64,000 bases of DNA from Desulfatiglandales bacterium (GCA_963662465.1 OY759599.1:3616001-3680000); one strand, 5' to 3'. Shown: positions 32,861 through 39,151, counted from the first letter of the stretch. The notes: a model not told the origin generated them from the letters alone. A program made the numbers and translations.

Positions 32861-33080
32861 TTTCGAGTTTTCTCTCTAATTCATAACGAAGTTCCAGGTA
32901 ATGGCGATAATCGTTAGCCCACTCCACAAACACTACTTCATCGGACAGTTGCCCTCGACAATACCGGTCAAAGAACTGCTCCGAGTCCATTTTCTCCCTA
33001 CTCTCGTATTCATTGAGTCGCTTGGTCACGGCAATCAGGGCATCCAGTGGTGATGAATACATTACAGTTTCTTTTCGCAT
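32850..33080 (-). CDS. Putative antitoxin (TumA-like)
   Basis: 76 aa, YE....MDSEQFF..Y..G.LSD...FVEWA; AAAGGAG RBS; overlaps the toxin start. Confidence 0.7.
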   Translation of the reverse strand: MRKETVMYSSPLDALIAVTKRLNEYESREKMDSEQFFDRYCRGQLSDEVVFVEWANDYRHYLELRYELERKLENAA

Positions 33081-33171
33081 TCATGTCTCCTTTGTGTCTA
33101 CCCAGAACCCATCATAGGTTGGGATGATAGGTGGAAAGAAAACTCTGGAAGAAGCAACCATGTTAATGACC

Positions 33172-34518
33172 TTAAACCCGCTTTTTGAGATAAAACAACT
33201 GAGCAATAATAGCAAAAATGCCGCCAGTGGCAATGCCTGACTTGAATACCGACTGAAGGGCGTGGGGCACATGATTGAGAATTTCCGGATTAAATTCCAC
33301 TCCCAGTCCCGTTGACAGTGAAACCGCAACAATCAGAACATCACAACGGTTTATTGGAGATTGCTGAATGATCTTGATCCCCGCCACGGCAACAGCACCA
33401 AACATCAACAGAGTGGCACCCCCCAGAACGGAGGGGGGAACCAGAGAAAAGAAATTGCCCACCATGGGGAAAAGCCCCAGAATGCTGAGAAATGCCGCAA
33501 TGAAATATCCTACATGCCGGCTGGCAACCCCTGTCAGTTGAATGATCCCGTTGTTCTGACCAAAGGTGGTGTTTGGAAAAGAATTGAAGAGGGTAGCCAG
33601 CATACAGTTGACCCCATCCCCCAGCACGCCTCCCGAGATGCGCTTCATGTAGATATCCCCCTCCACCGACTCCCCCGAAACGATGGCGGTTGCCGTTATA
33701 TCACCTACCGATTCAATGGTGGCAATCAGGTAAATCAGTGCAATGGGAATGAATGCGGACAGGCTGAAATCAAGTCCGTACTTGAGCGGCACGGGAAGAA
33801 TGATAAAATTTGGGGTCAGGAAACCTGAAAATTCAAAATCTCCCGTCATAAACGAAACGACGATGCCCACCACCAGGCCGATCAGGATGGAACTCATTCG
33901 CAGATACCGGTTCTCCATTCGGTTGAGGCCCACAATGGTCAAAAGCACCAGAAGCCCCGGCAAAAGATGGTTCAAAGCCCCGAAGCTCCCGTCCTTCAGC
34001 GCCTGTTGACCGCCCCCCAGTTCAACCATTCCGGCCTTTACGAGGGACAGTCCGATCAGCATCACCACCGAACCACTGACCACAGGGGTGATGATCCTCT
34101 TTAAGCGGTGCAAAAAGCGGCTCAAAACCATTTCAATGGGGGAACCGGCGAGACAGATGCCGAACATCAGGGGAAGGCCACCTAAATGCCCCGCGGCAAT
34201 CAGCGGTTCAATAAATGAAAAACTAGTCCCTTGAACACTCAGCAATCCTGATCCCACCGGACCCAAGCGCCGCACCTGGATGAAGGTTGAAACACCGGAA
34301 ATGAAGAGGGAGAGGCTAATCAAGTGGGAAGCCGTTTCACGGTCAAAATTCAGGGCACTGCTGATGATCAATGCGGGGGTCATGATAGGCACAAAAACGG
34401 CCATCAGGTGTTGAAGCGCGGCAAAAACAGTTTCCGGCAGCGGAGGCTTGTCATTCAGGCCATAGAGAATCTCCGGCCGATCGTCTTTGGCTTCCCGCAT
34501 CTTTATGCCACAGTCCAT
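33172..34518 (-). CDS. NCS2/NAT nucleobase permease, xanthine-type
   Basis: ALQHL, QGTSFSF, NAT signature FGQNNGIIQLTG. Confidence 0.92.
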   Translation of the reverse strand: MDCGIKMREAKDDRPEILYGLNDKPPLPETVFAALQHLMAVFVPIMTPALIISSALNFDRETASHLISLSLFISGVSTFIQVRRLGPVGSGLLSVQGTSFSFIEPLIAAGHLGGLPLMFGICLAGSPIEMVLSRFLHRLKRIITPVVSGSVVMLIGLSLVKAGMVELGGGQQALKDGSFGALNHLLPGLLVLLTIVGLNRMENRYLRMSSILIGLVVGIVVSFMTGDFEFSGFLTPNFIILPVPLKYGLDFSLSAFIPIALIYLIATIESVGDITATAIVSGESVEGDIYMKRISGGVLGDGVNCMLATLFNSFPNTTFGQNNGIIQLTGVASRHVGYFIAAFLSILGLFPMVGNFFSLVPPSVLGGATLLMFGAVAVAGIKIIQQSPINRCDVLIVAVSLSTGLGVEFNPEILNHVPHALQSVFKSGIATGGIFAIIAQLFYLKKRV

Positions 34519-34523
34519 GCCAT

Positions 34524-34742
34524 TCAGGCGTAAATATCTATCATCGAACCGGTTTCCATGGAACTGACGACATCTTTCCCATCGGATCCATAAAAAAGCG
34601 CCGGCTTACCATGAGTAGAAGCGCCGGAGTATCCCTGTCTCTCACCAATATAATCACTGCCCTGGTAGGGATGCTCTCGGAAACCGCCAACACTGGAGGC
34701 ACTAAAAACCTGAGATGGCACTAAGGAAAGCGCAATATCCAT
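34524..34742 (-). CDS. Small hypothetical protein
   Basis: 72 aa ending GSMIDIYA, 5 nt upstream of the permease ORF. Confidence 0.45.
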   Translation of the reverse strand: MDIALSLVPSQVFSASSVGGFREHPYQGSDYIGERQGYSGASTHGKPALFYGSDGKDVVSSMETGSMIDIYA

Positions 34743-34891
34743 GGTCAGAGGGCGACTCTTTTTCAGGGTTTCAAAATTTTAACAAATCAGATAGTCGGTT
34801 GCGTATTATCTGAATAAAGTATGACGCGGTTATTCGGTTTGTCAAGGTCAAAGGTGAATCTTCAGTAGTTCTTGTATGTTATAAAAAATCA

Positions 34892-34919
34892 TTGACAAAC
34901 ATAACACTAATCTTATAGA
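34892..34919 (+). promoter_or_regulatory. Putative sigma70 promoter of the attenuated operon
   Basis: TTGACA-16 nt-TATAGA. Confidence 0.55.
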
Positions 34920-34957
34920 AGCAGGGGGTATGAATCGACAATGAAGGAGTATGAACA

Positions 34958-35023
34958 ATGTATTGTAAACTCACGGGCTTTTTTTATTTTAGGTTTATGG
35001 GAACACCTCCGCCCGTGGATTGA
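34958..35023 (+). CDS. Attenuator leader peptide MYCKLTGFFYFRFMGTPPPVD (Phe/Tyr-rich)
   Basis: AAGGAG RBS 8 nt upstream; control codons TTT TTT TAT TTT AGG TTT; followed by an intrinsic terminator. Confidence 0.8.
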   Translation: MYCKLTGFFYFRFMGTPPPVD

Positions 35024-35043
35024 TGTTGATGTTGACAATTTTC

Positions 35044-35079
35044 AAGCCGTGGGCATTAAAAAGCCCACGGCTTTTTTTT
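35044..35079 (+). terminator. Attenuator terminator (segments 3:4)
   Basis: AAGCCGTGGGC-ATTAAAAA-GCCCACGGCTT then a T run, 66 nt upstream of the next start codon. Confidence 0.9.
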
Positions 35080-35145
35080 GCTTCTTTTTCAGAAACGGGA
35101 AGTCTGAAACAAGCGTTTAAACCATTATGATAATAAGGTGAAAAA

Positions 35146-37710
35146 ATGAAACAGAAAATCCCTGAACCCCTTGCCGTAACACCGAATTTCTATCGACTGG
35201 GGACCCCCGCCTTTCCCGCTTTTCTATCCCTGGGAAAGGTCGGTATGATCATTGAGGGCGGTACGGGACCCACCACTGAAATGATCATCCGGCAGATCAA
35301 AAGCCTGGGTGTTGATATGGAAAAAATCGAATACATCCTGCTCACCCATACCCATGCGGATCACATCGGCGCATTGCCGCACCTGAAGCGCAGGTGGCCC
35401 CATCTCAAACTGGTCGCCAGCGGACCTGGGGCAAAGATATTGAATACCCGGGAGTTGTATAACGAATTCCTTCTGGTGGACCTGGGCATTGCACAGCTCA
35501 TGAGAGCCAAATCCGAAATTGATGACATCCTTCCCACCCCTGAAGATTACCGCTTTGAAGTGGATCTGGTGGTCAAGGGAGGGGACACCCTGGATTTGGG
35601 GAATAATGTGGTTTGGGAAATTATTGATACCCCAGGCCATTCGCCGTGCCATATCTCGGCTTATGAAAAGACCGAAGGCACATTGGTGGTTGGTGATGCC
35701 ACGGGGTTCTATGTTCCGGAAAAAGACGTTTTCTGGCCCAATTATTTTGTTTCCCTGGAAACCTACATTGACAGCATTAAAAAACTCGCCGCATTTCCAG
35801 CCAAACGCGCCGTACTCTGTCACAATGCCGTCATAGAAGGCAATGTTCACGGGTATTTTGAAAAGGCCATGCAGGCAACCCGGAGGTATCATGAAAATCT
35901 TTTAAACCAGCTCAATCGCGGAAATTCCGCCGAAAGCATCGCCCTGGAAGGGGCTCAGTTCGTCAGCACCCTTACGGACATCCAGCCCTTTAAAGTCATG
36001 TACGATCTCTGCAAGCTCATGATCGACCGATCCCGGAAAAATGCCGTTCCATTATCGTTCAGCCTTTCCAGGGAGGAAACATCCCCCTCCCACGAAAAAC
36101 CCGTTCCAAAGCCGGAAAGCGCGAAGCAAATGATTTCGGAACCGAATGCCGTCACGCTGCCTGAAACGAAAAAAAAGCTCAACCTGAACGAACGGCTGAG
36201 CCTGGTGGCGCTGATCGATGAGGGTATGCGCCGGGGATTGGCGGAGGCCCCGGTTTCAGCGGACCTTTTTAACAATCTATGGGAGTTGGTGGGCGCCACC
36301 GCAAAGGGAGGAAGGATCAACAGACTGAAATTCCAGGATTCACAAAATGGGTTTCAGATGTTCGAAATCAAGGCGGAAAGCGGAGAAAACCTGGCTCGCC
36401 TCAACATGATCTACCTGAAAAAGCCGATTCCCTGTTACTACCTGGTGTACGTGGAAGTAGCGGCCCCTTTCAGGCGAAAAGGCCTGGGACATCACATTTT
36501 GAAATCCTTTGCCGATTTTCTCACCGAGAAATCGGCGGTGGGCATTCTCGATAACATCATCCCCCGGGAGGATCCCACCAATGACATCTATTTAAAACAG
36601 TCCTGGATTCCCGTGGAAGACATCATCGGAAACCTGATGTTTTATAAAGACCACAACTACATGATTTTTATTCCGCCCTACTTGAAAACCAGGGATCTGA
36701 AACAACCGATCCTCAAGGTCATGTATCACCTGAAACGGAAACGGGCGGTAATTGATATTCGAGAAAACGAAACCATGGTCAGAAAGACCCTCAATGAATT
36801 CAAGGAACTCTACGAAGCCCTGATGACTTATTTTCATTCAGAACTTGAAGCCCCTCAATCTTCCGTATTCATGCGGTTTCTTTTCACCCGCTTTGTAACC
36901 AAATTCATCGCTTTCAGACGGCGGATCGGTGATCTGGTGGGATATACGGGAGGAGAGTCCACCGAACAGGTGGTGCTGAACGCAAGCATCCATAAATTAC
37001 AGGTAAAATCCTATGCTCCGAAAGAATTCGTGAAAGAAGGCGCTATCGGCATGGGAGACCTGGGATTGTTGTCAAAACTTCCAGAAGCATTGACACAGGA
37101 ACCGGCCCAGATCATTGAGTCATTGCCCAATTATCGGAGACCCAATTTTCTGTTGTGGCTTAAAGAGAACCAAAAAACCTATGAAGACACCCTGACCCTG
37201 GGAGATCTCATGGATCTGGGATTTGACCCCACCCGGCTGAAAGAAATTGAAATCGACAGCCAGACCTTCATCTTTGAGCGTGTTCAGGCAAGACAGATCG
37301 ATGTCCTTCAAAAAAGAGGGGAATTAGTGGCCCGAATTACGGCTGAAATGCCCAACACCAAAATCAAAAGCGCACACTTGAAAACAAATCCTATTCTGCT
37401 GATCATCGGCGACAGGGGAAACGGATATGTTCTGCGCCGAAAAATAGACGCCATTCACTGGGAAGAAGCCATCGAGCAACTTCAAAGCAACGATAGCTTA
37501 AAATCGGTTAATGAGGCGATAAAACTGGATAGAATTATTCTTGAAACCGTCAAAGCCACGGCTACCACCGTGAGCCGGCAGCTGGGAGTGGAAAGGGAGA
37601 TGGTTGTTGAACAGTTAACCCCCTTTGTTTCCTGGGATTTAGAAAATAATCGGCCAAAAATGGTCATTGACTTTTCGTTCTCTTACGTGGAATCCATCTG
37701 GATAGCGTAA
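35146..37710 (+). CDS. MBL-fold metallo-hydrolase fused to a GNAT-like domain and an uncharacterised C-terminal region
   Basis: THTHADH, TPGHS, VGD, LCH in residues 1-300; low-complexity linker; YVEV...FRRKGLG acyl-CoA-binding motif. Confidence 0.85.
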   Translation: MKQKIPEPLAVTPNFYRLGTPAFPAFLSLGKVGMIIEGGTGPTTEMIIRQIKSLGVDMEKIEYILLTHTHADHIGALPHLKRRWPHLKLVASGPGAKILNTRELYNEFLLVDLGIAQLMRAKSEIDDILPTPEDYRFEVDLVVKGGDTLDLGNNVVWEIIDTPGHSPCHISAYEKTEGTLVVGDATGFYVPEKDVFWPNYFVSLETYIDSIKKLAAFPAKRAVLCHNAVIEGNVHGYFEKAMQATRRYHENLLNQLNRGNSAESIALEGAQFVSTLTDIQPFKVMYDLCKLMIDRSRKNAVPLSFSLSREETSPSHEKPVPKPESAKQMISEPNAVTLPETKKKLNLNERLSLVALIDEGMRRGLAEAPVSADLFNNLWELVGATAKGGRINRLKFQDSQNGFQMFEIKAESGENLARLNMIYLKKPIPCYYLVYVEVAAPFRRKGLGHHILKSFADFLTEKSAVGILDNIIPREDPTNDIYLKQSWIPVEDIIGNLMFYKDHNYMIFIPPYLKTRDLKQPILKVMYHLKRKRAVIDIRENETMVRKTLNEFKELYEALMTYFHSELEAPQSSVFMRFLFTRFVTKFIAFRRRIGDLVGYTGGESTEQVVLNASIHKLQVKSYAPKEFVKEGAIGMGDLGLLSKLPEALTQEPAQIIESLPNYRRPNFLLWLKENQKTYEDTLTLGDLMDLGFDPTRLKEIEIDSQTFIFERVQARQIDVLQKRGELVARITAEMPNTKIKSAHLKTNPILLIIGDRGNGYVLRRKIDAIHWEEAIEQLQSNDSLKSVNEAIKLDRIILETVKATATTVSRQLGVEREMVVEQLTPFVSWDLENNRPKMVIDFSFSYVESIWIA

Positions 37711-37733: not shown

Positions 37734-37913
37734 ATGCCGGATTTAATCTGCATCTTCTGTGGTGGACAGGCTGAGCTGCATGGCCGGTGAGCAAATGCAA
37801 AAGTCACCTGCCGGTCATGCGGGATGGAAACCAGTCCAAGTGAATATCGCGATCAAATTGAAAAATGGATGGATACGGTTTGTGAAGAAGTTGAAACGAT
37901 ACCGCCTCAGTAA
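37734..37913 (+). CDS. Candidate small selenoprotein with two CxxC motifs (in-frame UGA at 37788-37790)
   Basis: GGGAG RBS; MPDLICIFCGGQAELHGR-U-ANAKVTCRSCGMETSPSEYRDQIEKWMDTVCEEVETIPPQ*; fills the intergenic gap almost exactly. Confidence 0.65.
37804..37827 (+). promoter_or_regulatory. SECIS-like hairpin
   Basis: UCA-CCUGC-(CGGUCAU)-GCGGG-A-UGG starting 14 nt after the UGA, with GGUC in the apical loop. Confidence 0.5.
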
Positions 37914-39151
37914 ATCATTCCAACAAGGGCGCCGGTCATACAGGTGGCAATGGTTCCCGATACGATGGATTTGAGACCCAGCCCCACAATTTCATCCCGC
38001 CTTTCCGGCGCCATGGCGCCCAGGCCCCCGATCATAATGCCCAGGGAACCGAAATTGGCAAACCCGCACATGGCATAAATCATGATCAGCCGACTCCTTT
38101 CACACAATGCTCCCTGGGGCAGTGCCGCCAGATTGATATAGGCCAACAGTTCGTTCAATACGGTTTTAACCCCCATCAACCCCCCCGCGGTCACTATCTC
38201 CGGTGCGGGGACACCCATGAGCCAGGCGATGGGGGCCATAACAAACCCCACAAGCCGCTCGAAGGTCACCGGTTTCCCTGAGAACTCGGGCAAAAAAGCC
38301 AGAAAAAGGTTGACCAGGTGAACCAGGGCCACGAAAACAATCAGCATGGCGATGATATTGATCAACAACTGGATACCCCCCAGGATACCATTGGTAATGG
38401 CATCCATGGCGCTCCGTGCCCCCCTTGGCGCTGAAAGGGCTTCTTCGGACAATCGGGATGACTCAGGCACCATGAGTTTACTGATGGTAATGGCCGCGGG
38501 AGCGCTGACAATGGATGCCACCAGCAAATGCCCCATGATGCCGGGGACCACATGTTGAAGAATCGATGCGTACAATACCATGACCGTGCCCGCGACCGTG
38601 GCCATGCCGCACACCATGATGGTAAAGAGTTCGCTCCTGGAAATCTTGGAAAGATAGGGTCGGACAAAGAGGGGCGCCTCCACCATGCCGATAAAAACAT
38701 TGGCCGCGGCGCCGAGGCCTTCCACGCCTCCGATTCCCATCACCCGCTTCAAAATCCACGCAAAACTATTCACCACCAGAGGGATGATGCGCCAGTAAAA
38801 GAAGAGGGATGTCAAGGCACTGATCACCAGCACCAGGGGCAGCCCCCGAAAGGCCAGCACATAGCTAAAAGCGGGATTTTTTTCATCAAAGGGAAGATGG
38901 CCACCCCCCAGATAGCCGAATACGAAGCCGGTCCCCGCCCGGGTGGAGGCTTCCAATGCCCGCACTCCCTTGTTCAACCAGAAAAAAGCATCCTGACTTC
39001 CCGGAAATTTCAGGAGCAACAGGGCAAGGCAGATTTGCAGCAACAACCCGGAAATCAGGGTTCTGAAATTAATATTCTTTCGACTTTCCGAAAAAAGCCA
39101 GGCCAGGAAAGGGAGTGTTAGAAAACCCAGGAAACTTTGAAAATGAATCAA
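37907..39151 (-). CDS. nupC: Concentrative nucleoside transporter (CNT/NupC family)
   Basis: FVFGYL, ANVFIGMVEAPL, KTVLNELLAY, CGFANFGS. Confidence 0.92.
   Translation of the reverse strand: MIHFQSFLGFLTLPFLAWLFSESRKNINFRTLISGLLLQICLALLLLKFPGSQDAFFWLNKGVRALEASTRAGTGFVFGYLGGGHLPFDEKNPAFSYVLAFRGLPLVLVISALTSLFFYWRIIPLVVNSFAWILKRVMGIGGVEGLGAAANVFIGMVEAPLFVRPYLSKISRSELFTIMVCGMATVAGTVMVLYASILQHVVPGIMGHLLVASIVSAPAAITISKLMVPESSRLSEEALSAPRGARSAMDAITNGILGGIQLLINIIAMLIVFVALVHLVNLFLAFLPEFSGKPVTFERLVGFVMAPIAWLMGVPAPEIVTAGGLMGVKTVLNELLAYINLAALPQGALCERSRLIMIYAMCGFANFGSLGIMIGGLGAMAPERRDEIVGLGLKSIVSGTIATCMTGALVGMIY

Follow-up and report, generated by a model that had tools for sequence, protein, structure and literature searches.

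Why should a gene with no known role in aromatic amino-acid synthesis stand behind what looks like a phenylalanine- and tyrosine-sensing attenuator? The question is raised by positions 34892-35079 of a 64,000-nucleotide (nt) stretch of DNA from a Desulfatiglandales bacterium (GCA_963662465.1, OY759599.1:3616001-3680000; hereafter the window, numbered from its first letter), where a first-pass annotation, made from the sequence alone, had proposed a complete ribosome-mediated attenuator. The window sits in an 8.16-Mb single-contig genome, whose nearest public relatives are labelled Desulfatiglandales or NaphS2-like. Our analysis indicates that the element is very probably a transcription attenuator of the leader-peptide type, through which a translating ribosome senses how much charged tRNA-Phe and tRNA-Tyr is available. 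The product of the gene it precedes is a PqsE-like metallo-hydrolase fused to a GNAT acyl-coenzyme A (CoA) N-acyltransferase and to a C-terminal part without an assigned fold. The observations that bear on this are the sequence elements themselves, their conservation, covariation in three helices, a maintained reading frame, paralogy with the leader of an aro operon and the domain folds of the product.

Read directly from the sequence, the promoter, the AAGGAG ribosome-binding site, the leader and the RNA segments all lie where the first-pass annotation had placed them:

34892-34919, plus strand: promoter, with a perfect -35 hexamer TTGACA (34892-34897), a 16-nt spacer and the -10 hexamer TATAGA (34914-34919)
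34944-34949, plus strand: Shine-Dalgarno sequence AAGGAG, 8 nt ahead of the leader ATG
34958-35023, plus strand: leader open reading frame (ORF) from the ATG at 34958, 21 codons and the stop codon TGA at 35021-35023; peptide MYCKLTGFFYFRFMGTPPPVD
34963-34978, plus strand: segment 1 (core 34971-34978, with CACGGGC at 34972-34978), which pairs with segment 2 to give the anti-antiterminator
34979-34996, plus strand: regulatory codons 8-13, TTT TTT TAT TTT AGG TTT, read as F F Y F R F
35011-35026, plus strand: segment 2, with GCCCGTG(G) at 35011-35017(18) and the core GCCCGUGG / GCCCGTGG at 35011-35018, running through the stop codon at 35021-35023; its partner is segment 1 or segment 3
35042-35054, plus strand: segment 3 (CCGTGGGC at 35047-35054), the 5' arm of the terminator and alternatively the partner of segment 2
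35044-35079, plus strand: intrinsic terminator, with an 11-bp stem (35044-35054/35063-35073, 8 G-C pairs), an 8-nt loop and U8 at 35072-35079
35146-37710, plus strand: the controlled gene (P0001), 854 codons, starting 66 nt downstream of the attenuator behind its own AAGGTG

Transcription of the attenuator would be expected to start near 34925-34927. A consensus promoter scan omits the site at 34892-34919, as it requires T at position 6 of the -10 hexamer, which here ends in A; the arrangement of TTGACA, 16-18 nt and a hexamer starting with TA recurs in 13 of 13 fusion-type upstream regions, and the alignment of the orthologues displays a purine-rich block at the position of the leader Shine-Dalgarno sequence. 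Codons 8-13 hold the four Phe and one Tyr in six codons that had been noted, and they directly adjoin segment 1; the stop codon lies inside segment 2, and the 1:2 helix overlaps the ORF. The 1:2 and 2:3 pairings are present at the annotated positions, the 2:3 antiterminator being longer than had been recognized: in addition to 35011-35018:35047-35054 it includes 35020-35023:35042-35045, and because these pairs contain the stop codon, the latter is itself part of the switch. The fold of 34925-35085, a check which the annotation had named, indeed yields 1:2 together with 3:4 as the minimum free energy (MFE) structure (-44.4 kcal/mol, z -1.87). The energies of the isolated helices are -14.1 kcal/mol for 1:2, -17.0 for 2:3 and -22.5 for the 11-bp terminator helix 3:4. 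Since the z-score is unremarkable taken alone, the case rests on relatives and not on the fold of a single sequence.

This anatomy is that of a classical leader-peptide attenuator, which bears out the pheL/pheM/trpL geometry first suggested for it. The Escherichia coli pheL-pheA and pheM-pheST systems consist of a Phe-codon leader, segments 1 to 4 and an intrinsic terminator, with readthrough on shortage of Phe-tRNA. The present element resembles them in its short Phe-codon leader, four segments and intrinsic terminator, and differs from them in having Tyr codons mixed in, in the location of its stop codon inside segment 2, and in a target that falls outside both the biosynthetic enzymes and the tRNA synthetases. 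It is of the same mechanism class as the Rfam Phe_leader (RF01859) but stands outside that sequence family: an Rfam cmscan of 33000-37000, with E-values up to 10, recovered no leader family, Phe_leader included. A precedent for mixed Phe/Tyr sensing comes from aroF of Corynebacterium glutamicum, an aromatic-pathway gene that a Phe-Tyr-Phe leader is proposed to attenuate (Mentz et al. 2013; PMC4046766); that organism belongs to another phylum, and the target there is DAHP synthase.

From this anatomy we infer stalling, readthrough and the direction and signal of regulation as follows. A strong promoter of the sigma-70 type would start the transcript, and a ribosome would load on the 21-codon leader. 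With ample Phe/Tyr-tRNA, it would reach the TGA inside segment 2, which would then be covered or, following release, would re-pair with segment 1; with segment 2 unavailable, 3:4 would pair and RNA polymerase would terminate at U8. With scarce Phe/Tyr-tRNA, the ribosome would stall on codons 8-13 and cover segment 1, leaving segment 2 free to pair with the emerging segment 3, such that no terminator would form and the 854-residue protein gene would be transcribed, i.e. it would be induced by a shortage of Phe/Tyr-tRNA. These alternatives were modelled by masking a 29-nt ribosome footprint, with the transcript cut at 35058, ahead of segment 4, for the stall cases. With the A site at 34979, 34982, 34985 or 34988 the MFE fold contains the 2:3 antiterminator, and a footprint placed on the stop codon hides segment 2, leaving only the terminator to form in the full transcript. 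The masked folds thus reproduce the two states envisaged at the outset, namely release of 2:3 by a stall on the Phe codons and covering of segment 2 by a ribosome at the stop codon.

Is the arrangement conserved? We read the upstream DNA of 48 loci encoding relatives of the 854-residue protein (loci carry L numbers below), using a detector for aromatic leaders that calls for an ORF of 8-45 codons with at least 4/6 F/Y/W, followed by T6 within 130 nt, and for at least 230 nt of upstream DNA, which was too short in six loci. Leaders were detected for 11 of the 14 full-length orthologues with enough upstream DNA, and for 9 of 14 stand-alone homologues of the C-terminal part. As a background from the same genome, 78 of the 4382 windows that lie upstream of long ORFs trigger the detector (1.8%), and 12 of 4382 do so at a threshold of at least 5/6; a strict genome scan for perfect-stem terminators, which missed the aroK, DAHP synthase and trpE leaders, served as a rough background only.

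The leaders of the stand-alone homologues, which correspond to the GNAT-containing part and occur in Desulfomonile-like and other genomes, are YFYF leaders of their own: they share the peptide core and have an unrelated terminator (stem GCGGAG/CUCCGC). Beyond the 9 of 14 found by the detector, two more of these 14 loci (L030, L031) have clear YFYF leaders by eye, as does L039, whose upstream DNA was too short for the detector. Four such leaders were folded, and in three of them the segment near the stop becomes able to pair with the 5' arm once the terminator's 3' arm is taken away. A search of three genomes with the Desulfomonile-type terminator motif found a single copy in each and, by that pattern, no aro-operon paralogue.

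The helices themselves are supported by covariation. In an alignment of 12 fusion-type leaders (A1), RNAalifold recovers 1:2 plus the terminator; 1:2 has five pairs with compensatory change, a score that none of 500 shuffles reached, and for the 2:3 helix, taken at its extended length of 10 pairs, pairing reaches 94.2%, compared with 31-48% after its partner is slid. The 5' arm of the terminator (AAGCCGTGGG) is invariant here and the 3' arm variable, as would be expected if the 5' arm has two partners; a few of the 40 leaders of the second alignment differ in it. The latter alignment (A5) comprises 40 leaders fitted to a covariance model, R1, with 15 of the fusion type and 25 from aro operons or unassigned loci; it leaves out L061, L063 and L064, whose peptides are identical to those of L002, L012 and L010, respectively. 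Although A5 was not fitted to 2:3, 89.5% of the cells of this helix are paired, against 30-50% with the partner slid; compensatory changes are seen in four pairs and 18 cells, one pair occurring as CG 14 times, GC 7, AU 5 and UA 2, and 0 of 500 shuffles reach the score. For 1:2 and 3:4 combined, 87.1% of cells are paired and 14 pairs have compensatory changes (again 0 of 500 shuffles), with the terminator 3:4 taken by itself paired in 99.1% of cells. The sequences of A5 are related, so the shuffle counts overstate significance, a weakness from which the slid controls are free. The conservation, the covariation and the background rate of 1.8% together place the attenuator beyond chance.

The reading frame is constrained along with the RNA. 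An in-frame ORF that begins with ATG, has at least 4/6 aromatic residues and ends at an invariant TGA column inside segment 2 is present in 35 of the 40 leaders of A5, the exceptions being L006 (a frameshift and an earlier stop), L077 (a non-ATG start), L086 (another frame), L089 (3/6) and this genome's own aroK leader (a different stop). Insertions and deletions that fall between the aromatic run and the stop mostly have lengths divisible by three, and the aromatic core is retained as FFYF, YFYF or FYFYFY, with swaps between F and Y. In the distant leaders TTC replaces TTT, TAC replaces TAT, and F is exchanged with Y; the Phe codons are hence conserved in the orthologous leaders as aromatic codons kept in frame, through F/Y swaps and synonymous changes.

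This pattern bears directly on whether translation is needed at all. The hairpins could instead bind a protein or ligand in the manner of TRAP, PyrR or a riboswitch, or the region could be a small RNA gene, with the ORF being incidental to a U-rich tract. For such a translation-independent switch speak the retention of the TTTTTTTATTTT tract at the nucleotide level among the closest relatives, a z-score of just -1.87 for the whole region and weak, sub-threshold Infernal matches to small RNAs, such as RsaF (25.9 bits against a gathering score of 60). We consider it very unlikely in the face of a frame, start and invariant stop kept in 35 of 40 leaders, the TTT/TTC, TAT/TAC and F/Y swaps of the distant leaders, the sharing of the YFYF peptide core with C-terminal homologues on unrelated RNA, and the lack of any Rfam family at threshold. 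The same alignments dispose of a different sensor within the peptide. The window's leader ends ...GTPPPVD, and a PPP near the end of the peptide might let it sense polyproline or EF-P status. This idea was rejected as PPP is not conserved: it is confined to the window and the 94%-identical L001, with other leaders ending in PVPVG, LPMD, PAPVD etc., and a stall at PPP would cover segment 2, favouring termination. It can be regarded as extremely improbable.

What ties the attenuator to aromatic amino-acid metabolism is a second match of R1 in the same genome, to the leader of the aroK-aroC-pheA operon (57 bits; 71-99 bits in relatives). The leaders with aromatic cores seen elsewhere in this genome are:

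G000:C1:2039666-2039814, minus strand, outside the window (L050/L057): aroK-operon leader, peptide MFTNRSWQGFYYYYFGGPSMV, core FYYYYF, with a terminator
leader with core FLYYWYYFY: ahead of DAHP synthase, dehydroquinate synthase (aroB), an aminotransferase and prephenate dehydrogenase (tyrA), by Pfam
leader with core WWWRW: ahead of a second DAHP synthase with a ferredoxin-like domain, by Pfam
leader with core WWW: ahead of trpE and trp genes, by Pfam

Behind the FYYYYF leader, Pfam identifies shikimate kinase, chorismate synthase, a chorismate mutase/prephenate dehydratase/ACT protein, a PAS histidine kinase, dehydroquinase, shikimate dehydrogenase and EPSP synthase. The further leader loci, three in number (L058-L060), lie at C1:3252193-3252351 (plus strand), 4299458-4299607 (minus) and 1624696-1624826 (minus). 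The leader was thus found both at orthologues and at aro/pheA genes, as the first-pass annotation had proposed to look for it; pheS begins 20 nt after rplT in this genome, which leaves no room for a leader.

Like the fusion leader, the aroK-operon leader has the peptide frame ..Q S W/G Q. aromatic run.. G. L P M D stop. The two kinds have the same segment 2, 3 and 4 sequences, and the stop falls at the same column in 39 of 40 aligned leaders, the exception being this genome's own aroK leader. They differ in tuning: by eye, the fusion-type leaders are Phe-rich (mostly FFYF.F, as a rule with four F for each Y), and those of the aro operons are richer in Tyr. Across the order, R1 matches with E-values of 0.001 or less occur in 106 of 151 genomes. 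Of about 190 matches reported, the 29 best loci outside this genome were read for gene identity: 17 of these 29 precede shikimate kinase, 2 chorismate synthase and 5 the metallo-β-lactamase (MBL) fusion, with 5 unassigned (N-masked, at a contig end or missed by the detector). Given the shared R1 model, peptide frame, segment sequences and stop position, the fusion-gene leader is a diverged sister copy (paralogue) of the aroK-aroC-pheA attenuator. From this relation it would follow that the controlled gene belongs to the aromatic amino-acid starvation regulon. Our literature searches on leader-peptide attenuation in delta-proteobacteria found no description of the aro-operon leader.

What, then, does the controlled gene encode? 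The first-pass annotation had spoken of downstream genes in the plural, but there is only one: the next gene, at 37907-39151, is convergent on the minus strand, leaving the 854-codon gene monocistronic, as it is in most orthologous loci. Its product, encoded by a single-copy gene in this genome, has the following parts:

35185-36051, plus strand (residues 14-302): MBL hydrolase domain (Pfam Lactamase_B, 2.3e-24)
36304-36753, plus strand (residues ~387-536): GNAT domain, following a linker, assigned by fold match and motif
36754-37707, plus strand (residues ~537-854, ~320 residues): C-terminal part with no assigned fold, confidently folded in the model

The best solved relative of residues 14-302 is PqsE (E 4.6e-19), the 2-aminobenzoylacetyl-CoA thioesterase of Pseudomonas aeruginosa (PDB 7tz9, 2q0i), to which the domain aligns over the full 300 residues. 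The metal ligands are kept, and by eye H68, H70, D72, H73, H165, D184 and H226, including the HxHxDH motif, are all present. The relation is distant, and PqsE, unlike the present protein, is a stand-alone enzyme without GNAT or C-terminal parts. By analogy, the MBL part is probably a thioesterase, which we offer as a guess.

For the C-terminal 525 residues, a first AlphaFold model based on 23 similar sequences was unusable, with a predicted local distance difference test score (pLDDT) of 49.8; a model from a 36-row alignment reached a pLDDT of 83.2. Its GNAT part superimposes on AAC(2')-Ia (5us1_A) with a Z-score of 12.5 and a root-mean-square deviation of 3.1 Å over 137 aligned residues, and on many GNATs with Z-scores of 10-12. 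By eye, the CoA-binding motif R443-x-x-G446-x-G448 is present as RRKGLG at 443-448. The Pfam model PF00583 matches 31 of the 36 family members (best E 3.1e-7), the window's own sequence falling below the cut-off (17.7 against 20.7 bits), and the family profile gives only weak GNAT matches against the PDB (E 0.004). Foldseek against the PDB together with VIA-align returned GNAT matches only, at model residues ~55-207, so that residues ~537-854 were barely probed by them. For residues 535-854, BioW came up as a lead in the ESM Atlas (0.87, 130 shared features) and was discarded as noise, no match having reached 0.9.

The C-terminal 525 residues also exist as a stand-alone protein of ~530 residues. 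Their family is small: a search of 1.84 billion cluster representatives gave 145 matches (E-values of 0.001 or less), of which about a dozen are full-length, and a literature search found no report of a fusion between a PqsE-like metallo-β-lactamase and a GNAT. A PqsE-like MBL hydrolase fused to a GNAT agrees with the initial description of the gene as one without a known role in aromatic synthesis.

Such a domain composition invites a further explanation, under which the leader encodes an arrest peptide of the ErmCL or TnaC type: FFYF would stall on a drug or metabolite bound in the ribosomal tunnel, and the MBL-GNAT protein would be an inducible resistance or detoxification enzyme. Both folds are common among resistance enzymes, the GNAT part has an aminoglycoside 2'-N-acetyltransferase as its best structural match, and the gene is monocistronic with a strong promoter of its own. 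The comparison of residues 7-100 with the NCBIfam model of subclass B3 β-lactamases, which would point the same way, yields 58.7 bits, far short of the cut-off of 240, and among solved structures the MBL part comes closest to a thioesterase, PqsE, and not to a lactamase. Moreover, leaders of this family precede shikimate kinase or chorismate synthase in 19 of the best 29 loci, and the residues of the aromatic run change freely in their order and in how many there are (FFYF, YFYF, FYYYYF, FFFYYW) but stay aromatic, which fits codon counting better than a specific arrest sequence. We therefore see very little likelihood in drug- or metabolite-induced arrest, and favour an attenuator that counts Phe and Tyr codons.

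Several findings weigh against this Phe/Tyr-sensing attenuator or its proposed link to amino-acid supply, and concern the RNA, its distribution and the enzyme. As regards the RNA, 2:3 (-17.0 kcal/mol) is more stable than 1:2 (-14.1 kcal/mol), and the naked RNA cut at 35058 has 2:3 in its MFE structure; because of this preference, termination without translation would depend on the order of co-transcriptional folding, with 1:2 having to form first. When the ribosome is placed on the last Phe codon (A site at 34994), segment 1 is left unmasked and 1:2 pairs around the ribosome, an outcome that probably reflects a steric artefact. If the 12 closest leaders are taken alone, 2:3 covaries no more than the shuffles do (92 of 500), the sequences being too invariant. 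In terms of distribution, the detector finds a leader for just 1 of 13 stand-alone MBL homologues, the loci of two full-length orthologues (L007 and L025) are without one, and by eye the leader of L006 is weaker and frameshifted, with FFY kept. As for the enzyme, its domain folds give no pointer to amino-acid metabolism. Biosynthetic enzymes are often depleted in the amino acid they make, and this protein shows no such depletion of Phe/Tyr, its F+Y content standing at the 54th percentile. Separately from these points, the canonical Phe/Tyr pathway is complete in the genome, so that the fusion gene fills no obvious gap in it.

The genomic neighbourhoods of relatives offer some further context for the enzyme. 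In L046 the leader precedes a gene for a family-III CoA-transferase, which is followed by the C-terminal homologue. A gene for DAHP synthase precedes the MBL-only gene of L016 by 900 nt, and 2-hydroxyacyl-CoA dehydratase components follow MBL-only genes in L019 and L021. The surroundings of L013 include an aminotransferase fragment and FAD-oxidase/CCG genes. These neighbourhoods would be compatible with CoA-ester chemistry, as thin hints and not as proof. Our best guess for the role of the enzyme is an acyl-CoA-handling step that would spare or recover Phe/Tyr or their precursors.

Some variations on these loci deserve record. NaphS2 has two full-length copies of the fusion gene: L010 has a leader, and the second copy, L007, is preceded directly after the upstream gene by only a terminator-like remnant, AAAGCCCGCGGCTTTTTTT; a literature search returned no transcriptome study of NaphS2 dealing with phenylalanine. 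In L012 (2594-3000) an insertion of about 400 nt separates the attenuator from the fusion gene and contains repeats of CTGACACC/GGTGTCAGG, resembling a small inverted-repeat element, and L005 and L008 have 170-290 nt of extra DNA in the same place. The sole MBL-only homologue with a leader, L014 (441-700; MMQFSNFFFFYFYFNRAHPYP), has two successive terminator-like hairpins ahead of the gene. Among the aro-operon leaders, L068, L078 and L080 display an aroK-type leader and a Trp leader (of trpE or trpD) back to back on opposite strands within ~300 nt. This genome has an additional short ORF with WWW at C1:1446824-1446862 (plus strand), and a PAS sensor kinase of 628 residues in the middle of its shikimate operon (aroK-aroC-pheA-PAS histidine kinase-aroD-aroE-aroA). 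In the window, the upstream neighbour is a permease of the xanthine/uracil family at 33172-34518 (minus strand), and no plus-strand gene lies near the terminator that it could serve from upstream. An ORF of 72 codons at 34524-34742 (minus strand) lies directly ahead of the permease gene, with a leader of ~150 nt before the divergent promoter region; a sub-threshold match to the xanthine riboswitch (18 bits against 36) falls in the permease leader region on the plus strand.

The mechanism proposed here is a textbook one, and the element is a lineage-specific example of it, absent from Rfam, with covariation for all three helices. The new part is the target: a leader that counts amino acids is among the most specific regulatory labels that a bacterial gene can bear, and it would tag a narrow, uncharacterized protein family as responding to Phe/Tyr shortage. 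The label is independent in the fused and split forms of the family, standing on two unrelated RNA scaffolds. In evolutionary terms, the locus would exemplify a biosynthetic attenuator that was duplicated and re-tuned (to more Phe and less Tyr), recruiting a new gene into the regulon, and it provides an entry point to an enzyme that joins a PqsE-like hydrolase to a GNAT, in organisms noted for the anaerobic chemistry of aromatic compounds. One may go further and suppose that the MBL-GNAT family, which is a fusion here and elsewhere in Thermodesulfobacteriota consists of separate genes with their own control, is an unrecognized Phe/Tyr-supply enzyme of anaerobic aromatic degraders, repeatedly put under its own Phe/Tyr-counting leader for belonging to aromatic amino-acid homeostasis no less than the shikimate enzymes do; we advance this tentatively, as a possibility more doubtful than probable. 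If true, the family could pull aryl-CoA or aryl-lactyl-CoA intermediates back towards phenylpyruvate or 4-hydroxyphenylpyruvate, or block a drain on them.

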